NCBI GenBank assembly: GCA_963702845.1
Contig: OY969763.1
Location: forward strand, 992,001 to 1,056,000
DNA length: 64,000 nt
Source: an uncultured Verrucomicrobiae bacterium
GTDB lineage: Bacteria > Verrucomicrobiota > Verrucomicrobiia > Limisphaerales > Palsa-1400
Direction: 5' to 3'
The notes beneath the pieces were generated by a model. It searched no databases, was not told the DNA's origin, and was given only the letters and a program-made list of their open reading frames with translations. The number at the start of each line of letters is the position of its first letter. The first letter of the stretch is position 1. The translations under genes were made by a program, and so were the position numbers. Shown here piece by piece: positions 6,817-35,882 of the stretch.

Positions 6817-6845
6817 TTGACGGCGTCGGGGCAGGGGACTACGGT
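6817..6845 (+). promoter_or_regulatory. sigma70-type promoter for the TPP riboswitch-thiC transcript
   Basis: TTGACG-17nt-TACGGT immediately before the riboswitch. Confidence 0.55.
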
Positions 6846-6848
6846 TGC

Positions 6849-6949
6849 GACGTGCGGGGAGCCTTGCCTTTTGGCGCTGGCTGAGAGTCTTCTACAAGAA
6901 GAGACCCGTTGAACCTGATCCAGGTAATGCTGGCGAAGGGATGCACGTC
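6849..6949 (+). ncRNA. TPP (THI-box) riboswitch
   Basis: GGGGAGCC...GGCTGAGA...ACCCGTTGAACCTGATCCAGGTAATGCTGGCGAAGGGA, with P1 GACGTGC/GCACGTC. It lies directly upstream of thiC. Confidence 0.95.
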
Positions 6950-6980
6950 CTCGTTCACCCTTTCGCCGCCAAAGGAAACT

Positions 6981-25251: not shown

Positions 25252-28193
25252 CTACTTAGAATCGCGTTGTAAGTAGGAGAATAGGTCCATGAGTTCTTTT
25301 GGCTGGAGCGACTCAAGGAGGCCTTCGGGCATGAGGGACAGTTGCGATTCGCGCATGGCGCGGAGATTGTCGCGCGGGATGGTGTGCTTCTGGTTGTTTC
25401 GGTCCAGGACCGTGACTGAAGCCGGGGAGGAATCGACGACGAGGCCGCTGAGGTTTTGGTCGTCTTTGGTTTCGACGTCGAAGTTGACGTATTCGGGGCG
25501 GATGTAGGCGCTTGGGTTAACGATGTTGAGCAATAGGACGTCGAGGTTTTTGCGATCGATGCCGGTGAGGTCGGGGCCGATTTTGTTGCCTTCGCCGAAG
25601 AGGGTGTGGCAGACGGCGCAGGTTTTCTGGAAGGTTTTTTTGCCTTCGGTTGGATTGCCGGTGGCATCACGGCCGGCTGCGCCGCTGGGGTGAATGACCA
25701 ATTTAAGACGGTTGATGATGTTTTGTTTTTCGGCGGGGGAGCTGGTTTGGATTTTGCCCCAGAGTTTTTCGATGCGCGGGAGAAGATCTTTGAAGGTTGC
25801 GATTTGACGAACCTGGTCGAGAGATATGTCCCTGGGTGTGAGATTCTTTGCTTCGACGGTTGCGATGAGTGTTGAGGCCCACGTGGGGCGAGAGCAAAGG
25901 GCGTTGACGATTTGCGTGCGGTTGGCTGGAGGGACATGCGGATAAAGATCGATCAACTCGGAGGCTATCTGTGGATCGGAATATCGTTCGACGGCGGAGA
26001 GGGCAGCGTTGCGGATTGAATCCGATTTGGTTTCGCGGAGCAGGGTGGTTAAGAGAGGGAGGAAGCGAGGGTTGCCGTTTTGGGCGAGTGAGTCGATCAG
26101 TGAAATGCGATCAGGTTTCGGCACTGTTTCATCGATGATTAATCGCTGCGCGGTTGTTTCGGAAGGCGCGTGCTGCATGCGGACGCCGAGCCGAATCAAA
26201 CGAACATCATTTTGGGATTTTGTGGGCAATGACGTTATCCATGCGCCGAACGAATCGGGAACGCGGGTTGATTTTGCCAGACCTGCGTCCATGCCTTTAA
26301 GGATCGGCCCGATGCGATTTGCCTGTGACCCAGCAGCGCGCAAAAGAGTCATGCAAGCGTCGAGATCGTATTCAGAGGCGTAGCGGCGGGCGACTTTTTC
26401 GAGGATTGCGTTTGTGGCGAGGCGATCGTCTGAAAACATTTTCACAACGACATCTCGATTTGAGATTGTTTTATTTTCGAGAGCCCACCAATCCAGAAGC
26501 GGAATGCAAGGGTCATTGGCATCTTCGATGCGCAGGAGCAGTTCGTGAATGATTGGCAGGGCGTCGTCGCCGGGAAGTCTCTTGGCCGAGCACGCTAACT
26601 GCGCACGAACTGGTGCGCTTTGCTCATTGTGCGCTAGCTCGACGAGCGCTTCGCGAATTGAGTTGGAGACGTTGTGTGAGTCGGCCAACAACCGAACGGT
26701 CCATTTGCGAATATTCGCGTTGCTGTGGTGTAGGAGTTTCGCCGCCGTGGCTTCGTTGAAACCGCCGCTCACGTAAAGAGCCCACAACGACTCGAGTTGA
26801 AGGTGTGCGTTGGTGGAAGAAAGAACAGTGTTTAGCAGTTGTGGGACGATGGAAGTATCGCGTCGCTCCGCCAAAATGCGGCGAGCTTCGCGGGCGAACC
26901 ATTCGTTTTTGTCATTCAGAAATTGGAGAAGTTCTGTGCTGGTTTTTGTTTCGAACGATGGAAGCGCGACGTTGGTATCTGCCTGTGCGTATTGCACGCG
27001 ATAGACGCGGCCGTTGCTGCGGTCCCAAGTATCGAGAGGATCGACATGGGTGACGCGTTTGTCGCACCAGTCGGCGATATAGACTGCGCCGTCGGGACCG
27101 ACGCTGCAGTTAACGGGTCGGAACAGGTTATCGTCTGTTTTCAATATCTCGCCGCCGAAGGTGGACTGGAACGTGGAGCCGTGCGGCTTGAGCGTGGACC
27201 AATAAACGGAAGTGTCGAGCGGGTGGCCGGAGATGTAGGCGTGATTGAACTCAGTCGGGAACGCGCCGCCGTTGTAGATGATGCCGCCGGTGGAAAGGTG
27301 ATGGCCGCGATTGCCGTGTGTGCGGGACGTGTTCGAAATAGCCGTAAGTGTATGGGTTGTGGAGCGCGCCGTGTTTGCCGAAGTTCTTTACGTAATACGC
27401 GCCTTGCAGCGCGTGGAGCATTTGTTCGCTCGCATTTGTGCCGCAGAAAATTTCGCCGTCGTCGTCGAAATCGAGGCCCCAAAGATTTCCGCCGCCTTCG
27501 GCGAATAATTCGAACTGGTGCGTGACAGGGTGATAGCGCCACACGCCTTGTTGAAATTCGATGCCGCGAACGTGCGCCGTCACGGTGCTGCCTTGCACAC
27601 CATAAAGCCAGCCGTCTGGCCCCCATGTCAGGGAGTTTGCGAACGCGTGCGCGTCTTCCATGCCGAAGCCGGTGAGCAAAATTTCAGGATCACTGTCGGG
27701 AACGTCATCGCGGTTTTTGTCGGGATAGAAGAGCAGGTAAGGGGACTGCATCACGAAGACGCCGCCGTGACCGATGGCAAAACCGGTGCAGAGATTTAAG
27801 CCAGTGATGAAATTTTTGTAGCGGCGCGCGTGACCGTTGGCGTCGAAGTCGTCGCAAATCGTGATCTTATCGGCACCCTTCGGACCGCGTGGGGGCGGTT
27901 CGGGAACGCGATCGTAAGTGGTGCGCAGATATTGATCGACCTTTGTGGGTTTCAGTCCCGCAGGGGTGGGATATTGGATGTATTGCAGCACCCAAAGGCG
28001 GCCACGGTCGTCGAAATTGAGACAGAGTGGCTGGCGGATTTCGGGTTCGTTCGCGACCAGTTGAACGACGAAGCCCGGAGGGACGGTCATTTTATCAAGC
28101 GATTGTTGAGGAGGAAGGCCGTGTGCCGTGAATGCAACAAAAACGGTGCGCAAGCCACACGCACTCCAAACGCTTCGCGAGGATTCGAGCCAT
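25252..28193 (-). CDS. PVC-type heme-binding CxxCH protein (frameshift near 27320; start uncertain)
   Basis: VQLVANEPEIRQP..FDDRGRLWV, WGPDGWLYG, GPDGAVYIADW, HEAT repeats, CAVCH..IGPDL, SLMPEGL, over two ORFs. Confidence 0.82.
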
Positions 28194-29703: not shown

Positions 29704-30705
29704 TTATCCGAGCCACTTGGGATTATGCGCAGTGCCGTCGTAGTTGGAGGTGGTTTTAAATTTTTCAAACTTGCCGGTTGCGGCGGCTTCGGCGGTGCGG
29801 GCCAGGAGTTGTTTAACGGCGCTGGCGGAAAGCGGTTTGAAGGTGCGGGCAGCCTGAAGAGCTTGTTGCAGGTTTTCCATGCTTTCCATTCCAGTGATGA
29901 CGACGGACGTGGGAAGGTTCATCGCATAGTGCAACGCTTCAATCGCTGAAACGGTGTTGGTTTTGAGCAAATTGCCAGCGGCCAATGGCTTCATTCCGAG
30001 AATGCCCATGTTCTTTTTCACCGCGACTGGCACGACCTTGTGCTCGAAACTGCGAAAGTGTGCGTCGAGAACGTTTAGTGGCATTTGCACGGTGTCGAAG
30101 GTGAACCCGTGTTGCTCGGCGATTTCAATACAGCGCAGATGAATTTGCGGATCTTTGTGGCCGGTGAAACCTATGTGACGGATTTTGCCGGCCTGTTTGG
30201 CTTCAGCTAATGCTTCCATCGCGCCGCCGGGTGCAAAAATCACATCCGGATCCTCGAAGCGAATGATCTCGTGCATTTGCAACAAATCGAGGTGGTCGGT
30301 TTGCAAACGCTGCAGGGATTCGTCGATCTGTTTGGCGGCAGCTTGTTTGTTGCGGCCGTCGATCTTCGTCATCAAGAACGCCTTTTCACGATAGCCATCG
30401 CGGAGTGCTTTGCCCATGCGCACTTCGCTGTCGCCGTCGTGATAGTCCCAACAGTTGTCCATGAAGTTGATGCCCGAATCGAGCGCGGTGCGAATGATCT
30501 TGATGCCTTCTTCTTCGCTTGGATTGCCGATGTGAAAACCGCCGAGGCCAATGCAGGAAACTTTCTCACCAGTGCGGCCAAGTGTCCGGTAGGGGACATC
30601 GCCCCGTTTTTCGGCGGCGAGTGCCGACGCGCTCGTGCTCACAGCGAGACCGGTTGCGACGGTCAGTTTGACAAAGTCACGGCGAGTGTATGCATTGGTG
30701 TCCAT
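29704..30705 (-). CDS. aldo/keto reductase with Tat-like signal
   Basis: TRRDFVK; YRTLGRTGEKVSCIGLGG; FMDNCWDY; SLQRLQTDHLDL.Q.H. Confidence 0.88.
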   Translation of the reverse strand: MDTNAYTRRDFVKLTVATGLAVSTSASALAAEKRGDVPYRTLGRTGEKVSCIGLGGFHIGNPSEEEGIKIIRTALDSGINFMDNCWDYHDGDSEVRMGKALRDGYREKAFLMTKIDGRNKQAAAKQIDESLQRLQTDHLDLLQMHEIIRFEDPDVIFAPGGAMEALAEAKQAGKIRHIGFTGHKDPQIHLRCIEIAEQHGFTFDTVQMPLNVLDAHFRSFEHKVVPVAVKKNMGILGMKPLAAGNLLKTNTVSAIEALHYAMNLPTSVVITGMESMENLQQALQAARTFKPLSASAVKQLLARTAEAAATGKFEKFKTTSNYDGTAHNPKWLG

Positions 30706-30711
30706 AAACTA

Positions 30712-30751
30712 AAACATGGCTCCGGCGAGCCCGGCGTTCAACCGGAATTTC
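30712..30751 (-). promoter_or_regulatory. leaderless-type promoter, copy 1 of a 40-bp repeat
   Basis: TTGAAC-17nt-CATGTT-7nt-ATG; 37/40 identical to 41517-41556. Confidence 0.6.
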
Positions 30752-30789
30752 GAGGGGCTCGGCTATCAATGTCGAACAACATCCTATTA

Positions 30790-31310
30790 GCGGTAACATC
30801 TTTTTGTTTTGGTGAGAAAAAGTTGGAAAAGGTGAGAAAAGATTGGAAAACCTGCAATGCAACTGAACTGACTGACCCTGACCATCGCACCGCTCAAAAT
30901 AATTTTAGGTTCGGAATGGTTCGGTTTACCTCGGTTTGGTTCGGTTTGGTTCGGGATCAATCGAATATTGTCCCCCCTTACCCCCCTCTGGACCCGTCAC
31001 GCCGTCCCAAGGCACGTAAACATTGATGGTGGCGGTTCCCCCACGAGCCTGACCAATTCAACCTCGGACGGTTCCGCAGGGGGAGTCATTAATAACAAGG
31101 ACCCTTTGATGCCAAAAATAAAATTTTAATTTTTTGGCGTTATGAGCCGTTATGAAGCGTTACAAGCCGTGATGACGCGTCATGCCAAAACGGGGCGAGC
31201 GCCACTTTGGCGCAGTTTTGTGATTTCAAAGAACATTCGCCTTCGCAGGCGTCCGGCATGCACCGCCGGCTGCTGCAAGGTTTAACATGAAGTTGCGACA
31301 TATGTCAAGC
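30790..31310 (-). other. non-coding unit A: TTGACA promoter, boxA-like element and decamer-repeat modules
   Basis: TTGACA near 31303-31308, TGTTCTTTGAAA at 31224-31235, and three blocks of 10-nt-period repeats. No credible ORF. Confidence 0.5.
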
Positions 31311-31690
31311 GTTGCAAGTTAAACCGATTTCGCGCGAAGGCTTCGAACCGCCGACTGGTAATCGGGGCTCGCTCCGCTCGGGGAGCAAAGAACGCGACGA
31401 TGGTCACTACGGACCTTAACAAGGGAGTGGCGGCTAACTTTATCGGCGGCGAATCTGGGAGCGTTCTGTTTTCTTGTTCGAGGACGGCAAAGCCTTTCTC
31501 TGATGCCGCCGTAAGATGATGTCTTCTGCTGACAACCGTTTTCGTCTGATGGTTTGAAACGCCTCGGTGGTGAACTCTGGGCCTCAGTGTTTTCCCCAAC
31601 AGACAAACCATGTTTATCGCTGCCGCACCATCCGTGCGAGCTAAGCGGTTCTTGGGAAACAAAACACAAACAATAGAAACTAAAACACCT

Positions 31691-32512
31691 ATGAAGCTAA
31701 AACACATAGCAATCTGTCTGATTGCGGCGGCCATGTCCGCATTGACAGCAAGAGCGCACATTCTGGTCACCGTTCTTTGTCCCGAAAGCGGCAAATCGGC
31801 GGCGGGCATTCACGTGTGCGCAACAAAGGCCAACAATCCTGAAAACCAACTTTGTGGCGAAACCGATGAAAACGGCTTTGTAAACTTCGTCCCGAATGCT
31901 GGGGGCATTTACCACGTCTGCGTCGATACTACCACCCTGCCGGCCGGGGCGATCCTCGCTAACCCTTGCCAGGACATTGATTTCGAAGGCGTCGACATCG
32001 CCGTCGAATTCGATCTTGGTGGCTCCTTCTGCGAATCCGCTCCGCCGCCATCGGCGTGCTGGGAGACTGGCGGGGGCACCTTCCTCAAGGTCAAAGGCCA
32101 ACCTGTGTGGACCTTTGGTGGCGTCATCTATCCCGGGTGCAGTCCTACGGCTGCGGGCGGTGGAAACTTGAACATCGTTAACCATGTCACAGGCCTTCAC
32201 TTCAAGGGCACCGACTTCGTCGTTGACGACTGCAGGGGCGTCGCGACCAAATCACCGAAGGTCACGGTTAACATCATTGACTGGCATGGCACCGGCTACG
32301 TGAGTGGCGCCGACGAATCGAAGAAGACGCCGGTTACTTTCGTCGGCACGTTTAGAGATGCTAAGGAGAGTGGCGCTAGCGCCGACGGGCTGTATATCAA
32401 AGTGCTGGATCTGAGCGGTCATGTGCTATTCCAGATCGGCGGCGGTCCTGATGACCTGCAGCTGCTCAGCACGGGCAATGTTCAGATTCACCAGAGCAGT
32501 TGCGGCAAGTAG
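31691..32512 (+). CDS. secreted Cys-containing hypothetical protein (possibly a post-COAP-1-like C-terminal domain)
   Basis: Signal peptide MKLKHIAICLIAAAMSALTARA; TGGG...TFGG...GNVQIH pattern; followed by a terminator. Confidence 0.6.
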   Translation: MKLKHIAICLIAAAMSALTARAHILVTVLCPESGKSAAGIHVCATKANNPENQLCGETDENGFVNFVPNAGGIYHVCVDTTTLPAGAILANPCQDIDFEGVDIAVEFDLGGSFCESAPPPSACWETGGGTFLKVKGQPVWTFGGVIYPGCSPTAAGGGNLNIVNHVTGLHFKGTDFVVDDCRGVATKSPKVTVNIIDWHGTGYVSGADESKKTPVTFVGTFRDAKESGASADGLYIKVLDLSGHVLFQIGGGPDDLQLLSTGNVQIHQSSCGK

Positions 32513-32538
32513 CACCTGGTGGAATAGTTTGGCCATAG

Positions 32539-32571
32539 AGCCGCGAGCGTTCCTGAACGCTCGCGGCTTTT
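32539..32571 (+). terminator. intrinsic terminator
   Basis: AGCCGCGAGCGTTC-CT-GAACGCTCGCGGCT hairpin plus a T run, 26 nt after the stop codon. Confidence 0.7.
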
Positions 32572-32799
32572 AGTTATTGTGTCATTACAGCCCAGCACAA
32601 AATAAAGGGGTGTTTCGCTTGGGGCCAGCCACCCGAATCTCCTCCACAATGCGCAACGGTTATACGGATCGGTTGGAGTTGCTGGAGGGAAGATGTCTCG
32701 CGAAGGACGCAAAGGTAGAACCGGAATTAGAACACACTATAATAGACGCCGTACTGAGGTGAACTTGACCTGCATCAATGGAATGCGGTGCAATGAAAT

Positions 32800-33317
32800 A
32801 TCGAGAATCCAAAAAATTCAAAAATGTTGCTCATTGTCGCTCATTCCTTCTCATTCCTTCTCATTGGAGAAACATGGAGAAACATTGGAGAAACAATGGA
32901 GAAACTCTTTAACGTTAATTGTTTCTCCTAAGTTTCTCCTGCCGCCTTAGCTTTTTGACCGCCTTCCCAAACAAGGCTCATAAAAATAAAAGAATTTACG
33001 CTTTAAGAACCTTGATAAACCTTTAGGAACCTTGATTCGCAAGGGTTTGTCACAGTGATGCCGAACCAACGTGGCAAGCGGTCCGCTTCGCAACCTTTAA
33101 CATCTTTTTGTTCTGGTGGTAAAAAACGGTAAAAAGCGGTAATGGCCGGAATTCCGCGGTAAGCGGCGGTTTGCCGGCGTCCAATTTGCTGCGTTTTGTC
33201 AAAGATCCGCCTTCGCCAAGGCTTCGGCGCGACAAGTCCGCGTTCAGTAAGCCCAAGAGCTCAGGGCTGCAAATTCAGCAGCAGCTTCATATTAGAAAAA
33301 GAGAGTTACTGTGTCAA
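32800..33317 (-). other. non-coding unit B: consensus sigma70 promoter, boxA-like element and decamer-repeat modules
   Basis: TTGACA-17nt-TAATAT at 33317-33289, GGATCTTTGACA at 33197-33208, and four blocks of 10-11-nt-period repeats. No credible ORF. Confidence 0.55.
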
Positions 33318-33388
33318 GCGTGGGGAGAAAAGTGAGAGTGAGAGTGAAAGTGCATAGGGGGCGGGGAGACCAAGGATTACAAACCATC

Positions 33389-33516
33389 CAATCGCGCAAA
33401 CATTCCCCAACGCAACGCTTGTTCGCCGACGCCGCCGAATCGAATTGTTTATCTACTCAGCGCAAAGGAGAAATCTACGACTTCAAAACGAACCATACTA
33501 AGGGTTGACCCTCCGA
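33389..33516. repeat. ~128-bp direct repeat, copy 1
   Basis: CAATCGCGCAAACATTCCCCAACGCAACGCTTG...CTACGACTTCAAAACGAACCATACTA.GGGTTGACCCTCCGA; roughly 90% identical to 36278-36406. Confidence 0.9.
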
Positions 33517-33531
33517 CTTTAATCGAGCCAA

Positions 33532-35703
33532 TCAGGGTAGACGAATTCGATAGAATCGGGCGGGATAGTTCGTCCATTGCTGATCGCTAAAGTAAATCTT
33601 ACCATTGGTAACGGTGCAGCTTTGCACCGTTTTCCAGGATGCGCTCGGCAAGTTTGTGGCGGCTTCCACTACGATGGCGATGTTCGTTGTTCCAGTGATG
33701 TTGAAGCCAAAGCGATTTGTCAGGACGCCGAAGTAGCCGTCGCTGGTTTGAACCTGCGGGTTCCACGGCGCTGTCGGGATTCCATCAAATGTTGCGCCCC
33801 ACCCTGTCGTTCCCGGTAAGTAATAAGCGGTGGGATGAGGGCCGAGAAAAACGGTGGTGTCATTTGTTGGCGTCGGCGCGTTTCCCCGGAAATAGATAGA
33901 TTGCAATCCGGAGACATAGAATGAATAGGTGTCGATGTTGGTCACGCTGCTCGGAATGGAGATGCTTTTCAACTTGCTGCAGGCCTCGAATGCATAGCTG
34001 CCAATGCTGGTCACGCCCTCGGGAATGGTGACGTTGGTTAATCCCCCGCACTCGTAGAATGCAGAACTCCCGATGCTGCTCACACTGCTGGGAATAGTAA
34101 TGCTAGTCAGGCTGGCGCAGCCGAGGAATGTAGCACCTCCAATACTTGTTACGCCGTTGCCGATCGTAACGCTGTATAAGGCGGAGCAGTAACTAAATGT
34201 CGAATAGCCCATGTCGGTAACGCTGTTGGGAATAGTGACGGTGCCGAGGCTGGTGCAGTTATAGAATGCGAAGCCTCCGATGTTGGTGGCAGCGTTGCCG
34301 ATGGTCAGATTGTTCAGGGAAGTGCAGGAATAAAACGCGGAGTCTCCGATTCTCGTGACGCCATTGCCGATGCTCACTGACGTTAAGCCGCTGCAGTACA
34401 TGAACGCCTGCTGTTCGATGTTCTTAACGCTGTTAGGAATAGTGACCGCAATAGGGCTGGCGCACTCCTCGAAAGCCCCGCGCGCAATATTGGTGACGCT
34501 ATTCGGAACAGTATAACTGCCAGCGCGGCCAGCCGGATATTCCAGGAGCACGGTTTGAGCTTGGTTAAACAGGACGCCATTAACACTGCTGTAGATAGGA
34601 TTGCCGGCTGCCATGGTAATGTTGGTCAGACTGCTGGACGTGAAGAACAGCGAACCGCTTCCGATGTTGGTCACACTGTTCGGAATGGTAATGGTGCGCA
34701 AGCTGGTGCAATAGGCGAAGGCCTGACTTCCAATGCTTGTCACACTGGCGGGAATTGCGATGTTAGTCAGCTTGGTGCAGTTGTAGAACGCCTCAGTTCC
34801 GATAGTGATGACGCTGTTTGGAAGAGCGACGCTGGTCAACCTACAGTTCCAGAACGCCGAGGTGCCGATGTTCGTCACGCTACTGGGAATGACCACGTTA
34901 GTTAGGCTGTTGCAATAATAGAACGTAGAGTCGCTGATACTTGTCACGGAATCGGGAATCGTGATGGCGGCCAGCGTTTGACACGAGTTGAACGCCGATT
35001 CTCCAAAGCTGGTTACGCTATTCGGAATGCTAATGTTTGTCAGATTGACGCACGAACCGAACGCATAACTTCCAATATTGGTAACACTCCCCGGAATGAC
35101 GTAGCTCCCTGCAAGGCCAGCGGGATATTGTATCAGGATGGTCTGGTCTTGATTGAACAGGGCGCCGTTAGTGCTGGAGTAATTAGGATTGCCGAAAATT
35201 ACCGTAACATTCGTCAGGCTATTGCAGGCCGCGAAGGCGCCAATTCCGACATTGGTCACGCTATTAGGAATTGTGACGCCCGATATATTACAGTACTTGA
35301 ACGCATTGCTTCCGATGCTGATCAGACTGTCGGGAATAGTCACCGTGGCCAAGTTGTAGCATTGGAAGAACGCAGCATCGCCAATGCTGGTCACGCCGTT
35401 GCCAACCGTCACGTTTGTCAGACCGTTAAAACACCGATAAAAAGCGCCATTTCCAATGGTGGTCACGCTGTTGGGGATGACTACGCTGGACACGTATGTG
35501 TTGTTTGAAAATGCAGAGTCGCCAATCGTCGTTACCGGATAGCCGTTGATCGCGCTGGGGATGATCACGTTTCCCGGCCCAGTGTAGCCAGTAATGGTGA
35601 TAGATCCGTTGTTGGTAACGAATGAGAACTGTGTCTGCCCGCGGGCGGCCAATACTCCCAATGACAGCCAAAGGGCGGCTGCTAATAAACAAGTTCCCTT
35701 CAT
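33532..35703 (-). CDS. BspA-type leucine-rich repeat (LRR_5) surface protein with FYR-type C-terminal domain
   Basis: Signal peptide; many IPNSVTxIGxxAFxxCxxLTxV repeats; ends YPARFYRIRLP. Confidence 0.9.
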   Translation of the reverse strand: MKGTCLLAAALWLSLGVLAARGQTQFSFVTNNGSITITGYTGPGNVIIPSAINGYPVTTIGDSAFSNNTYVSSVVIPNSVTTIGNGAFYRCFNGLTNVTVGNGVTSIGDAAFFQCYNLATVTIPDSLISIGSNAFKYCNISGVTIPNSVTNVGIGAFAACNSLTNVTVIFGNPNYSSTNGALFNQDQTILIQYPAGLAGSYVIPGSVTNIGSYAFGSCVNLTNISIPNSVTSFGESAFNSCQTLAAITIPDSVTSISDSTFYYCNSLTNVVIPSSVTNIGTSAFWNCRLTSVALPNSVITIGTEAFYNCTKLTNIAIPASVTSIGSQAFAYCTSLRTITIPNSVTNIGSGSLFFTSSSLTNITMAAGNPIYSSVNGVLFNQAQTVLLEYPAGRAGSYTVPNSVTNIARGAFEECASPIAVTIPNSVKNIEQQAFMYCSGLTSVSIGNGVTRIGDSAFYSCTSLNNLTIGNAATNIGGFAFYNCTSLGTVTIPNSVTDMGYSTFSYCSALYSVTIGNGVTSIGGATFLGCASLTSITIPSSVSSIGSSAFYECGGLTNVTIPEGVTSIGSYAFEACSKLKSISIPSSVTNIDTYSFYVSGLQSIYFRGNAPTPTNDTTVFLGPHPTAYYLPGTTGWGATFDGIPTAPWNPQVQTSDGYFGVLTNRFGFNITGTTNIAIVVEAATNLPSASWKTVQSCTVTNGKIYFSDQQWTNYPARFYRIRLP

Positions 35704-35882
35704 AAGCGATCGAATTGTTATTAACCCCAGTAGGCCTATCAAGCTAAATTGGGCACTCCAATTCGATGCGTGCGCGTGTTCACTTTGCTATAAGTTGCAA
35801 AGCGCACTGCTCCAATTCCTCCACCCCGAGACACGAATGGAGTGGAAGAGCAAAACTTACGTCCAGGTGTTAGTTCCAACTT

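Follow-up and report, generated by a model that had tools for sequence, protein, structure and literature searches.

What is the role of promoter-bearing, gene-free DNA that looks like the start of a ribosomal RNA (rRNA) operon and is followed by no rRNA gene? This question was raised by two units, here called A and B, on the minus strand of a 64,000-nucleotide (nt) stretch of DNA from an uncultured Verrucomicrobiae bacterium. The whole stretch (G000:C1:992001-1056000) is the window referred to below; the genome, G000, is a single contig of 6.03 Mb with 54% G+C. A sequence-only reading of the window had described A and B as two paralogous units, each with a promoter, a hairpin and a motif like the antitermination signal boxA, and had proposed a family of long non-coding RNAs. 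We found that both belong, as peripheral members, to a lineage-specific family of about 50 self-contained units that is confined to one genus. Its head is a promoter, hairpin and boxA arrangement like that of an rRNA leader by sequence, position and covariation, and the grammar of its cassettes, in which tandem 10/11-nt words are followed by an A/T-rich closure, is undescribed. Concerning function, we favor, with somewhat better than even confidence, stand-alone non-coding RNA genes that would be transcribed by Nus-modified polymerase and whose products would display tandem words, with some units acting also as leaders.

A genus-restricted family of mosaic units

Direct inspection of the sequence located all the promoter, hairpin, shared-motif and boxA-like elements of the sequence-only reading on the minus strand, each where it had been placed. 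The perfect TTGACA-17-TAATAT promoter claimed for unit B lies at 33317-33289; just 2 promoter-like matches occur within 30400-33700, and it is one of them. A second TTGACA in unit B has no following -10 element and is thus not a second promoter. Both units contain GCGAAGGCG. Both also carry CGCTTGACA (33320-33312 and 31311-31303, minus strand), which is unremarkable on its own, with 20 copies genome-wide.

Genes were predicted with a crude caller based on open reading frames (ORFs) and codon usage (4604 genes, 84.6% coding). No ORF in either unit passed it. The downstream sequence that had been described as ORF-free is built of tandem-repeat cassettes of period 10/11. The absence of rRNA genes and of clustered regularly interspaced short palindromic repeats (CRISPR) was also borne out: no rRNA, transfer RNA (tRNA), CRISPR or Rfam family was found downstream. 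At the gathering score, Rfam 15 gave no family in the units, the sole match in the window being a thiamine pyrophosphate riboswitch (RF00059, window 6845-6960, plus strand, 65.6 bits). At E-value thresholds, the region and 10 family loci yielded only sub-threshold microRNA- or leader-like noise, so that no known RNA family was found in the region.

Further members were revealed by a genome-wide search with a regular expression for a promoter followed within 180 nt by a boxA-like motif, with the genome read backwards as a control. There were 31 matches, 30 of them intergenic, compared with 0 in the reversed genome despite its 116 boxA-like strings. In the 31 cases the consensus promoter sits 55-156 nt upstream of the boxA-like motif; the start sites are predicted. 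A looser promoter definition gave 33 heads. The strict pattern TTGACA-N16-18-TANNNT-N40-70-KYTCWTTGAMA had 17 matches in the genome and 0 in the control. Pooling the match lists gave about 51 heads.

The distribution among relatives was surveyed in two ways. A covariance model, R1, was built from 16 aligned heads (alignment A1) and found 31 copies in G000. Across 60 relatives, it found 5 copies in G002 and 1 in G001, two assemblies of the same genus that are 67% and 73% complete, respectively. One weak match in G039 (E = 0.007) was apparently coding sequence, and the remaining 57 of the 60 relatives had no match. In the taxonomic family of 31 genomes, the strict pattern occurred 17 times in G000, five times in G002, once each in G001 and G007 and in none of the other 27. 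Among 300 other genomes of the order, there were 0-2 matches each, and seven genomes had any.

Pieces of both units recur in mosaic fashion at dozens of genome sites. The head of unit A together with its first cassette has a 92% identical copy at 4506999, and the head alone has copies of 89-90% identity at 2853698 and 2516195. The promoter region of unit A is common to four paralogues (88-92% identity). Positions 114-524 of unit B have a copy of 87% identity at 1774686. The first hairpin type of unit B recurs in paralogues at 1774706, 5414770, 399260, 3619818 and 474715 and at locus L053 of G002, and its terminal GGAGAAAC cassette has about 11 more copies in the genome and further copies in G002. 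The common layout is a near-consensus promoter, typically TTGACA-C-GCCGTWGCTTCAC-NN-TATAAT, then one or two hairpins, a boxA-like motif and one or more cassettes. The family is real, but units A and B are not a pair: they are two of about 50 mosaic members and belong to different subfamilies.

We found no paper describing such units in the open-access texts searched. A phage origin was considered and rejected: blastn against 50,697 phage records gave no match, and the head pattern had no exact counterpart in viral contigs.

A head like an rRNA leader

The genome has one 16S gene and a single rRNA operon. The operon has its own boxA elements, TGCTCATTGAAAA in the leader, TGTTCTTTAACAA in the 16S-23S spacer and AGTTCTTTGACAA just ahead of the 23S gene. 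The 12-mers of units A and B match these elements, and the family variants GTTCTTTGAAA, GATCTTTGACA, GCTCTTTGACA and GTTCATTGAAA all fall inside the same set. The motif is above chance: GTTCTTTGACA occurs 17 times versus about 2.2 expected, and 13 of the copies are intergenic. The published gamma-proteobacterial boxA consensus is GYTCTTTAANA (PMC5725501). The family motif is one base off this consensus, mainly by a G for A at the eighth position, and one rRNA copy deviates likewise. ORFs with a NusB domain are present in the genome.

The two hairpins between promoter and boxA stay paired. In the 16 aligned heads, 90.9% of the cells were paired, compared with 83.1% in shuffles (0 of 500 shuffles reached this value). 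Five of the 11 pairs were changed on both sides, and the covariation score was 0.344 versus 0.210 (0 of 500 shuffles), with slid controls at 0.127 or lower. At one position the commonest pair is U-G, which would be an A-C mismatch on the opposite strand; the pairing therefore fits this strand only.

Some other observations concern the head and the rRNA leader. Directly behind the boxA of the rRNA leader lies a stretch (TTGAATTGTGCGAATAGTGAG) that resembles the words AATGTGCGGG, AATGTGGGGC and AATGTGCGAC of subfamily 2, when genome positions 3835828-3836030, upstream of the 16S gene, are compared with subfamily-2 cassettes such as those at 2666988 and 3772548. By this resemblance the two may have a boxC-like relationship. 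A small conserved ORF across boxA was rejected by eye, as an ATG is present in some subfamilies only and the frame is not kept. Two ORFs with a Rho_RNA_bind domain (538 and 393 amino acids (aa); genome 4238664-4238885 and 2028759-2028971) were noted, and the genome may carry two Rho paralogues.

Tandem words, their possible function and the rival explanations

A cassette has 2-6 words of 10/11 nt in tandem, with an A-run/T-run as its closure. In a search with Tandem Repeats Finder, the period found most often in the genome was 10 (181 arrays, 153 intergenic). Merging left 231 intergenic arrays with periods of 9-11 or 20-22. A boxA-like motif occurs in the intergenic region of 66 of these; 63 arrays lie downstream of the motif and three do not. 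The stretch following the 63 downstream arrays is 62% A/T compared with 51% for the stretch preceding them, the array being on the promoter side. This A/T-rich closing stretch usually has a T-run, e.g. CCAAAAAATTAAAATTTTATTTTTGG, AAAAAGTTTTTTCC, AAACAAAAAGATGTTA and ACATTCCGATGATATTTTTT. The 21-mer that the sequence-only reading had found in both units is present at 30794-30814 and 33098-33118. As the arrays precede an A/T-richer stretch that usually has a T-run, it is the closing motif of one cassette type. The genome contains it three times and its 15-nt core five times. Within the two units, tandem repeats of period 10-11 lie at 30811-30850, 30908-30954, 31137-31184, 32825-32905, 33008-33036 and 33118-33142.

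The simplest units have a head, a boxA, a long imperfect hairpin and a T-run, with a predicted transcript of about 190 nt. The proposed family is real, but many of its members are short and not long. In the hairpin of the simple units, a locus-specific 8-nt word is repeated 3-5 times at 10-11 nt, and its complement lies in the 5′ arm. The word is GTAGAAAC in type I and GTTGCAGG/GTTGCAAC in type II; all copies and complements switch together between the types. The version in G002 carries GTGCCAC.

We searched for partners of the words. Fourteen words were searched genome-wide for trans targets, and outside the family loci they occurred at about chance frequency without clustering. No PPR_2 or PUF domain that could read the words was matched, which is weakly informative because the control genomes equally had none. 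A general link between the word in the promoter spacer and the cassette words was also considered and rejected, as the two are equal in only two of about five loci compared by eye. Apart from the family, a second group of phased 10/11-bp arrays without a boxA head has the words TGCATCATTTC, GGTCACGTTT, CGGTAAAGAAA, AAACGTACAG and GGAGGTAATC (G000:C1 813163-813980, 1557263-1557678, 3124508-3125968 and 4504910-4505699). Period-7 tandem repeats are also common intergenically (71 arrays).

The reading that we favor runs as follows. Each unit starts with a near-consensus promoter of sigma-70 type. The leader then follows the logic of the rRNA-operon leader, with one or two boxB-like hairpins followed by a single-stranded boxA. 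In the nascent RNA, boxA would recruit NusB-NusE(S10) and the Nus complex to RNA polymerase. The untranslated transcript would thereby run on past Rho and past the weak U-run stops that separate the cassettes, and would fold. This would yield an abundant RNA of modular build in which a locus-specific word is present many times; its most plausible role would be that of a multivalent platform for binding, or of a decoy. If a co-directional gene lies downstream, the unit would also form a long leader, as unit A perhaps does for an aldo/keto reductase gene. Transcription, Nus dependence and an RNA function are what we infer here from the sequence.

A bolder version, to which we give only a small chance, holds that the units form a new class of abundant Nus-dependent "word-repeat" RNAs that could act as multivalent decoys. 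The one rRNA operon would then face about fifty imitations of its leader, with promoter, boxB-like hairpins, boxA and, in one subfamily, GU-rich words like boxC. Such decoys might titrate the machinery of rRNA antitermination and folding (NusB/S10/NusA) or another nucleic-acid-binding factor, or might self-associate via palindromic words. If so, they would form a tunable, fast-evolving layer of global control.

Several observations weigh against the units being non-coding RNA genes of this kind. The labels "intergenic", "co-directional" and "convergent" all rest on the crude gene caller. R1 scored units A and B weakly (18.6 and 12.7 bits); they are its two best matches in the region and are correctly positioned, but they are below the genome-wide cut and absent from the genome-wide matches. 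The predicted fold of unit B is better than that of shuffled sequences (z = -2.94, 0 of 100 shuffles), whereas that of unit A is no better (z = +0.71). The covariation of the head was drawn from paralogues of one genome and represents few independent events. The boxA motif itself contains TTGACA/TTGAAA. In composite units, the boxA-like CCTTTGACAAAAG recurs ahead of second cassettes, and thus boxA may belong to each cassette and not be a leader signal. The cassette tails lack a canonical GC hairpin ahead of the T-run; the T-runs come after a long imperfect hairpin and 10-12 more bases, without a GC clamp. The arrays were also considered as C-rich, G-poor Rho-loading sites. With C above G in 21 of 48 units (mean skew -0.006, P = 0.47), the presumed RNA strand shows no C-over-G skew, so that a simple Rho-site reading fails.

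The remaining objections concern the arrays. As many as 165 of the 231 intergenic arrays lie in regions without a boxA-like motif, a count inflated to some extent because the regular expression misses variants such as GGTCTTTGACA at 399260. The head-less second group of arrays has a similar word layout and follows a 124-aa gene in two places. Therefore, the arrays may be a DNA-level feature of the lineage. In such an explanation, which we consider improbable, the 10/11-bp words would be helically phased docking sites, like iterons or centromeres, or curvature elements, serving DNA-binding proteins, and the head would be only one of their contexts. The prevalence of period 10, mostly between genes, would fit, as would the A-run/T-run junctions after the arrays. 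Several words also fit the palindrome GTWGCWAC, and a word-like GTAGCWAC occurs in some promoter spacers. Against it stand the strict polarity of the arrays to promoter and boxA (63 versus 3) and the G-U pairs of the head hairpins that fit one strand only. Because the words vary by locus, dozens of cognate proteins would be needed. The chance frequency of the words outside the family also argues against it, and no DNA-binding partner gene was found among the neighbors of units A and B, which encode the reductase, a leucine-rich-repeat protein and a 274-aa protein.

Comparison between species bears on a further explanation. In G001, the 180-nt region upstream of the reductase orthologue lacks unit A, and the sequence becomes homologous to G000 again about 40 nt ahead of the start codon. 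In G002, a unit of about 310 nt including its promoter (locus L049, compared with G000 27971-27988) lies where G000 has 12 nt. A DEAD-box helicase gene has a unit upstream in both G002 and G000, with the same head type and different cassettes. The family thus turns over quickly between species and shuffles its cassettes. One metagenome yielded three more simple type-II units on its contigs. One metagenome unit is orthologous to the G000 unit at 1825270 and is 81-100% identical to it, including an unchanged stretch of 41 nt; next to it, the spacer differs by an indel of about 85 nt, and identity in the flanking gene is about 90%. A unit that is retained is conserved about as well as coding sequence.

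In that explanation, the family is a selfish or neutral mosaic repeat, similar to BOX elements, bacterial interspersed mosaic elements (BIMEs) or miniature inverted-repeat transposable elements (MITEs), that spreads and shuffles by recombination, happens to carry a promoter and a boxA copied from the rRNA leader and would have no function for the cell. We think this unlikely. The restriction to one genus, the differences in presence between congeners just described, the shuffling of cassettes at their boundaries, the 87-92% identity of paralogues and the abundance of other repeat families in the genome all speak for it. Opposed to these are the near-consensus promoters and paired hairpins kept across all subfamilies, the orthologous unit that is conserved when its adjoining spacer is not, and the recurrence of one head type ahead of the helicase gene in two species. 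In addition, neither terminal inverted repeats nor a target-site duplication was seen at the one filled/empty site compared (L049 of G002 versus G000). The motif CCTTCGCG(M)GA, tried as a mobile-element boundary, flanks some units, yet it is a general intergenic motif (579 copies, 87 intergenic) and was rejected. CCTTCGCG occurs 579 times versus about 210 expected, often in short runs of period 9 at intergenic edges.

The placement of the units is also informative. Among the 33 heads, 19 have a co-directional next gene 5-690 nt away, and 14, including unit B, face the 3′ end of the next gene. The units are thus not simply leaders of messenger RNAs (mRNAs). That they are nevertheless long 5′ leaders or switches of downstream genes, with boxA acting as in suhB, is in our judgement the least probable of the explanations weighed here. 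The 19 co-directional genes are in its favor, together with the distance of 88 nt between the end of unit A and the start codon of the reductase gene and the unit retained before the helicase gene in two species. Control of mRNAs by boxA is established (PMC5725501). On the other hand, the genes downstream are functionally unrelated, and the G001 reductase orthologue has no unit. Furthermore, the putative boxA regulatory sites reported in that source lie within 50 nt of start codons and number 0-7 per genome. Unit A may still be a leader of the reductase gene as well. The 1.5 kb upstream of each of the 49 genes for tRNA or transfer-messenger RNA contained none of the 51 heads. Co-orientation with replication (22 of 51 heads) is uninformative as a proxy of expression, since the genes themselves show no strand bias (50.8% co-oriented with the replichores inferred from GC skew, which has its minimum at about 4.75 Mb and its maximum at about 2.21 Mb).

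Features of the two units and comparison with known systems

The features of the two units and the neighboring genes are listed in Table 1.

Table 1. Positions of the elements of units A and B and of the adjacent genes (window coordinates)
Feature	Position	Strand	Description
Unit B promoter	33289..33317	minus	TTGACA 33317-33312, 17-nt spacer, TAATAT 33294-33289; inferred start about 33283
Unit B first leader hairpin	33266..33282	minus	GCUGC...GCAGC
REP-like element copy inside unit B leader	33206..33245	minus	GCGGACTTGTCGCGCC..GCGAAGGCGG; 40 nt
Unit B boxA-like element	33197..33208	minus	GGATCTTTGACA
Unit B cassette 1	33098..33142	minus	(TACCGYTTTT) repeats, period 10, then end motif CACCAGAACAAAAAGATGTTA
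Unit B cassette 2	32977..33036	minus	20-nt unit (ATCAAGGTTCYTAAAGSTTT) x2, then A/T run
Unit B terminal cassette	32810..32940	minus	long GGAGAAAC/GTTTCTCC hairpin, (GAGAAGGAAT)2, (GAGCRACAAT)2, tail CATTTTTGAATTTTTT
Unit A promoter region	31280..31347	minus	conserved upstream stretch, TTGACA 31308-31303, weak -10-like TTAAAC 31285-31280
Unit A leader hairpins	31238..31270	minus	CCGGC/GCCGG 31269-31253; CGCCU-GCGA-AGGCG 31251-31238
Unit A boxA-like element	31224..31235	minus	TGTTCTTTGAAA
Unit A cassette 1	31113..31184	minus	(TAACGSYTCA) repeats, period 10, then palindrome CCAAAAAATTAAAATTTTATTTTTGG
Dispersed motif of about 55 nt in unit A	30971..31013	minus	ccttgggacggcgtgacgggtccagagggg; about 10 genome paralogues
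Unit A later cassette	30891..30954	minus	(CCGAACCAAA) repeats, period 10, then CCTAAAATTATTTTGAG
Unit A last cassette	30794..30850	minus	(TTTTCCAAYTTTTTCTCACC)2, then end motif AAAACAAAAAGATGTTA
Aldo/keto reductase gene	29704..30705	minus	co-directional with unit A; starts 88 nt downstream of it
274-aa gene	31688..32570	plus	no Pfam family; convergent with unit B; terminator-like hairpin 32537-32570
BspA-type leucine-rich-repeat protein gene	33532..35742	minus	ends upstream of unit B

The 3′ end at which unit B points belongs to the 274-aa gene on the opposite strand. Two of the listed elements also occur outside the units. Many genomes of the order, from this family and from others, each carry several copies of the REP-like element of 35-40 nt, in some cases as tandem copies, and it was also seen at loci L005, L006, L008-L010 and L012; in unit B, its 3′ part forms the hairpin 33222-33209 directly before boxA. 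The dispersed motif reads ccttgggacggSgtgacgggtccagaggggg. Its paralogues are 84-91% identical (e.g. genome 3388570-3388613, 4505053-4505104 and 5585322-5585392), and at some loci the motif adjoins a GGGACGGGTCA/TGACCCGTCCC hairpin.

Among known systems, the leaders of CRISPR arrays reportedly carry boxA. They resemble the units in having a boxA ahead of a long, untranslated and repeat-containing transcript, which in the units is a predicted one, presumably as a protection against Rho. A CRISPR array has direct repeats of about 24-48 nt, unique spacers and usually cas genes. The units differ from this in having identical tandem words of 10-11 nt and no spacers, and many are only about 190 nt long. 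Rfam reported no CRISPR direct-repeat family in these loci.

Modular interspersed repeats include the pneumococcal BOX elements, with their boxA-boxBn-boxC modules, the BIMEs of Escherichia coli and the Correia elements of Neisseria. Like them, the units are species-specific, intergenic and multi-copy, with exchangeable modules, and such repeats are sometimes transcribed and folded. The units differ by their own near-consensus promoter and a boxA of the Nus type, the name "boxA" in BOX elements being coincidental. As in the MITE/BOX/BIME class, the units are mosaic; the inverted repeats and target duplication of that class were not seen at the one site compared.

Two other types of system use short repeated motifs. 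Sponge RNAs, such as CsrB/RsmZ for CsrA and CrcZ for Hfq/Crc, have many copies of a short motif on a non-coding RNA, which is here a predicted one. In the units, however, the motif varies by locus and is strictly tandem at 10-11 nt. The centromere parC of plasmid R1 has ten 11-bp repeats that are bound by ParR. The units share with such iteron centromeres the tandem direct repeats at one helical turn near a promoter (periods 10, 11, 20 and 21), but they are chromosomal, with more than 200 arrays, dozens of words and no adjacent partner gene at A and B. Compared with an intrinsically terminated small-RNA gene, the units have their own promoter and T-runs but no GC-clamp terminator.

The boxA-regulated mRNAs such as suhB (Baniulyte et al. 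2017, PMC5725501) are similar to the units in using boxA outside rRNA. In that paper, only few boxA regulatory targets are expected per species, and non-coding RNAs fell outside the search for them. By that account, rRNA, a few mRNAs and some CRISPR arrays would be the targets of boxA and the Nus complex, only a handful in each genome. The units differ from the targets described there by their number (17-31 per genome), by their distance of mostly 130-690 nt from the next gene and by their occurrence in either orientation.

The closest likeness is to the leader of the rRNA operon, which has a boxB hairpin, boxA and boxC and acts with NusB, NusE, NusA and NusG, together with SuhB. A strong promoter, hairpin(s) near it, boxA and an untranslated RNA, predicted in the units, are common to both. 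The units differ in that no rRNA or tRNA follows, in their 10/11-nt word cassettes and in their number of about 50 copies against one operon. If the units are transcribed, either an entire non-coding RNA family would have taken up processive antitermination, or its RNAs would rival rRNA for the Nus factors. With predicted start sites, boxA point mutants and word swaps all defined, the system lends itself to direct tests. In this genome, a single rRNA operon is accompanied by dozens of stand-alone promoter-boxA units in the style of the rRNA leader, with nothing recognizable downstream.

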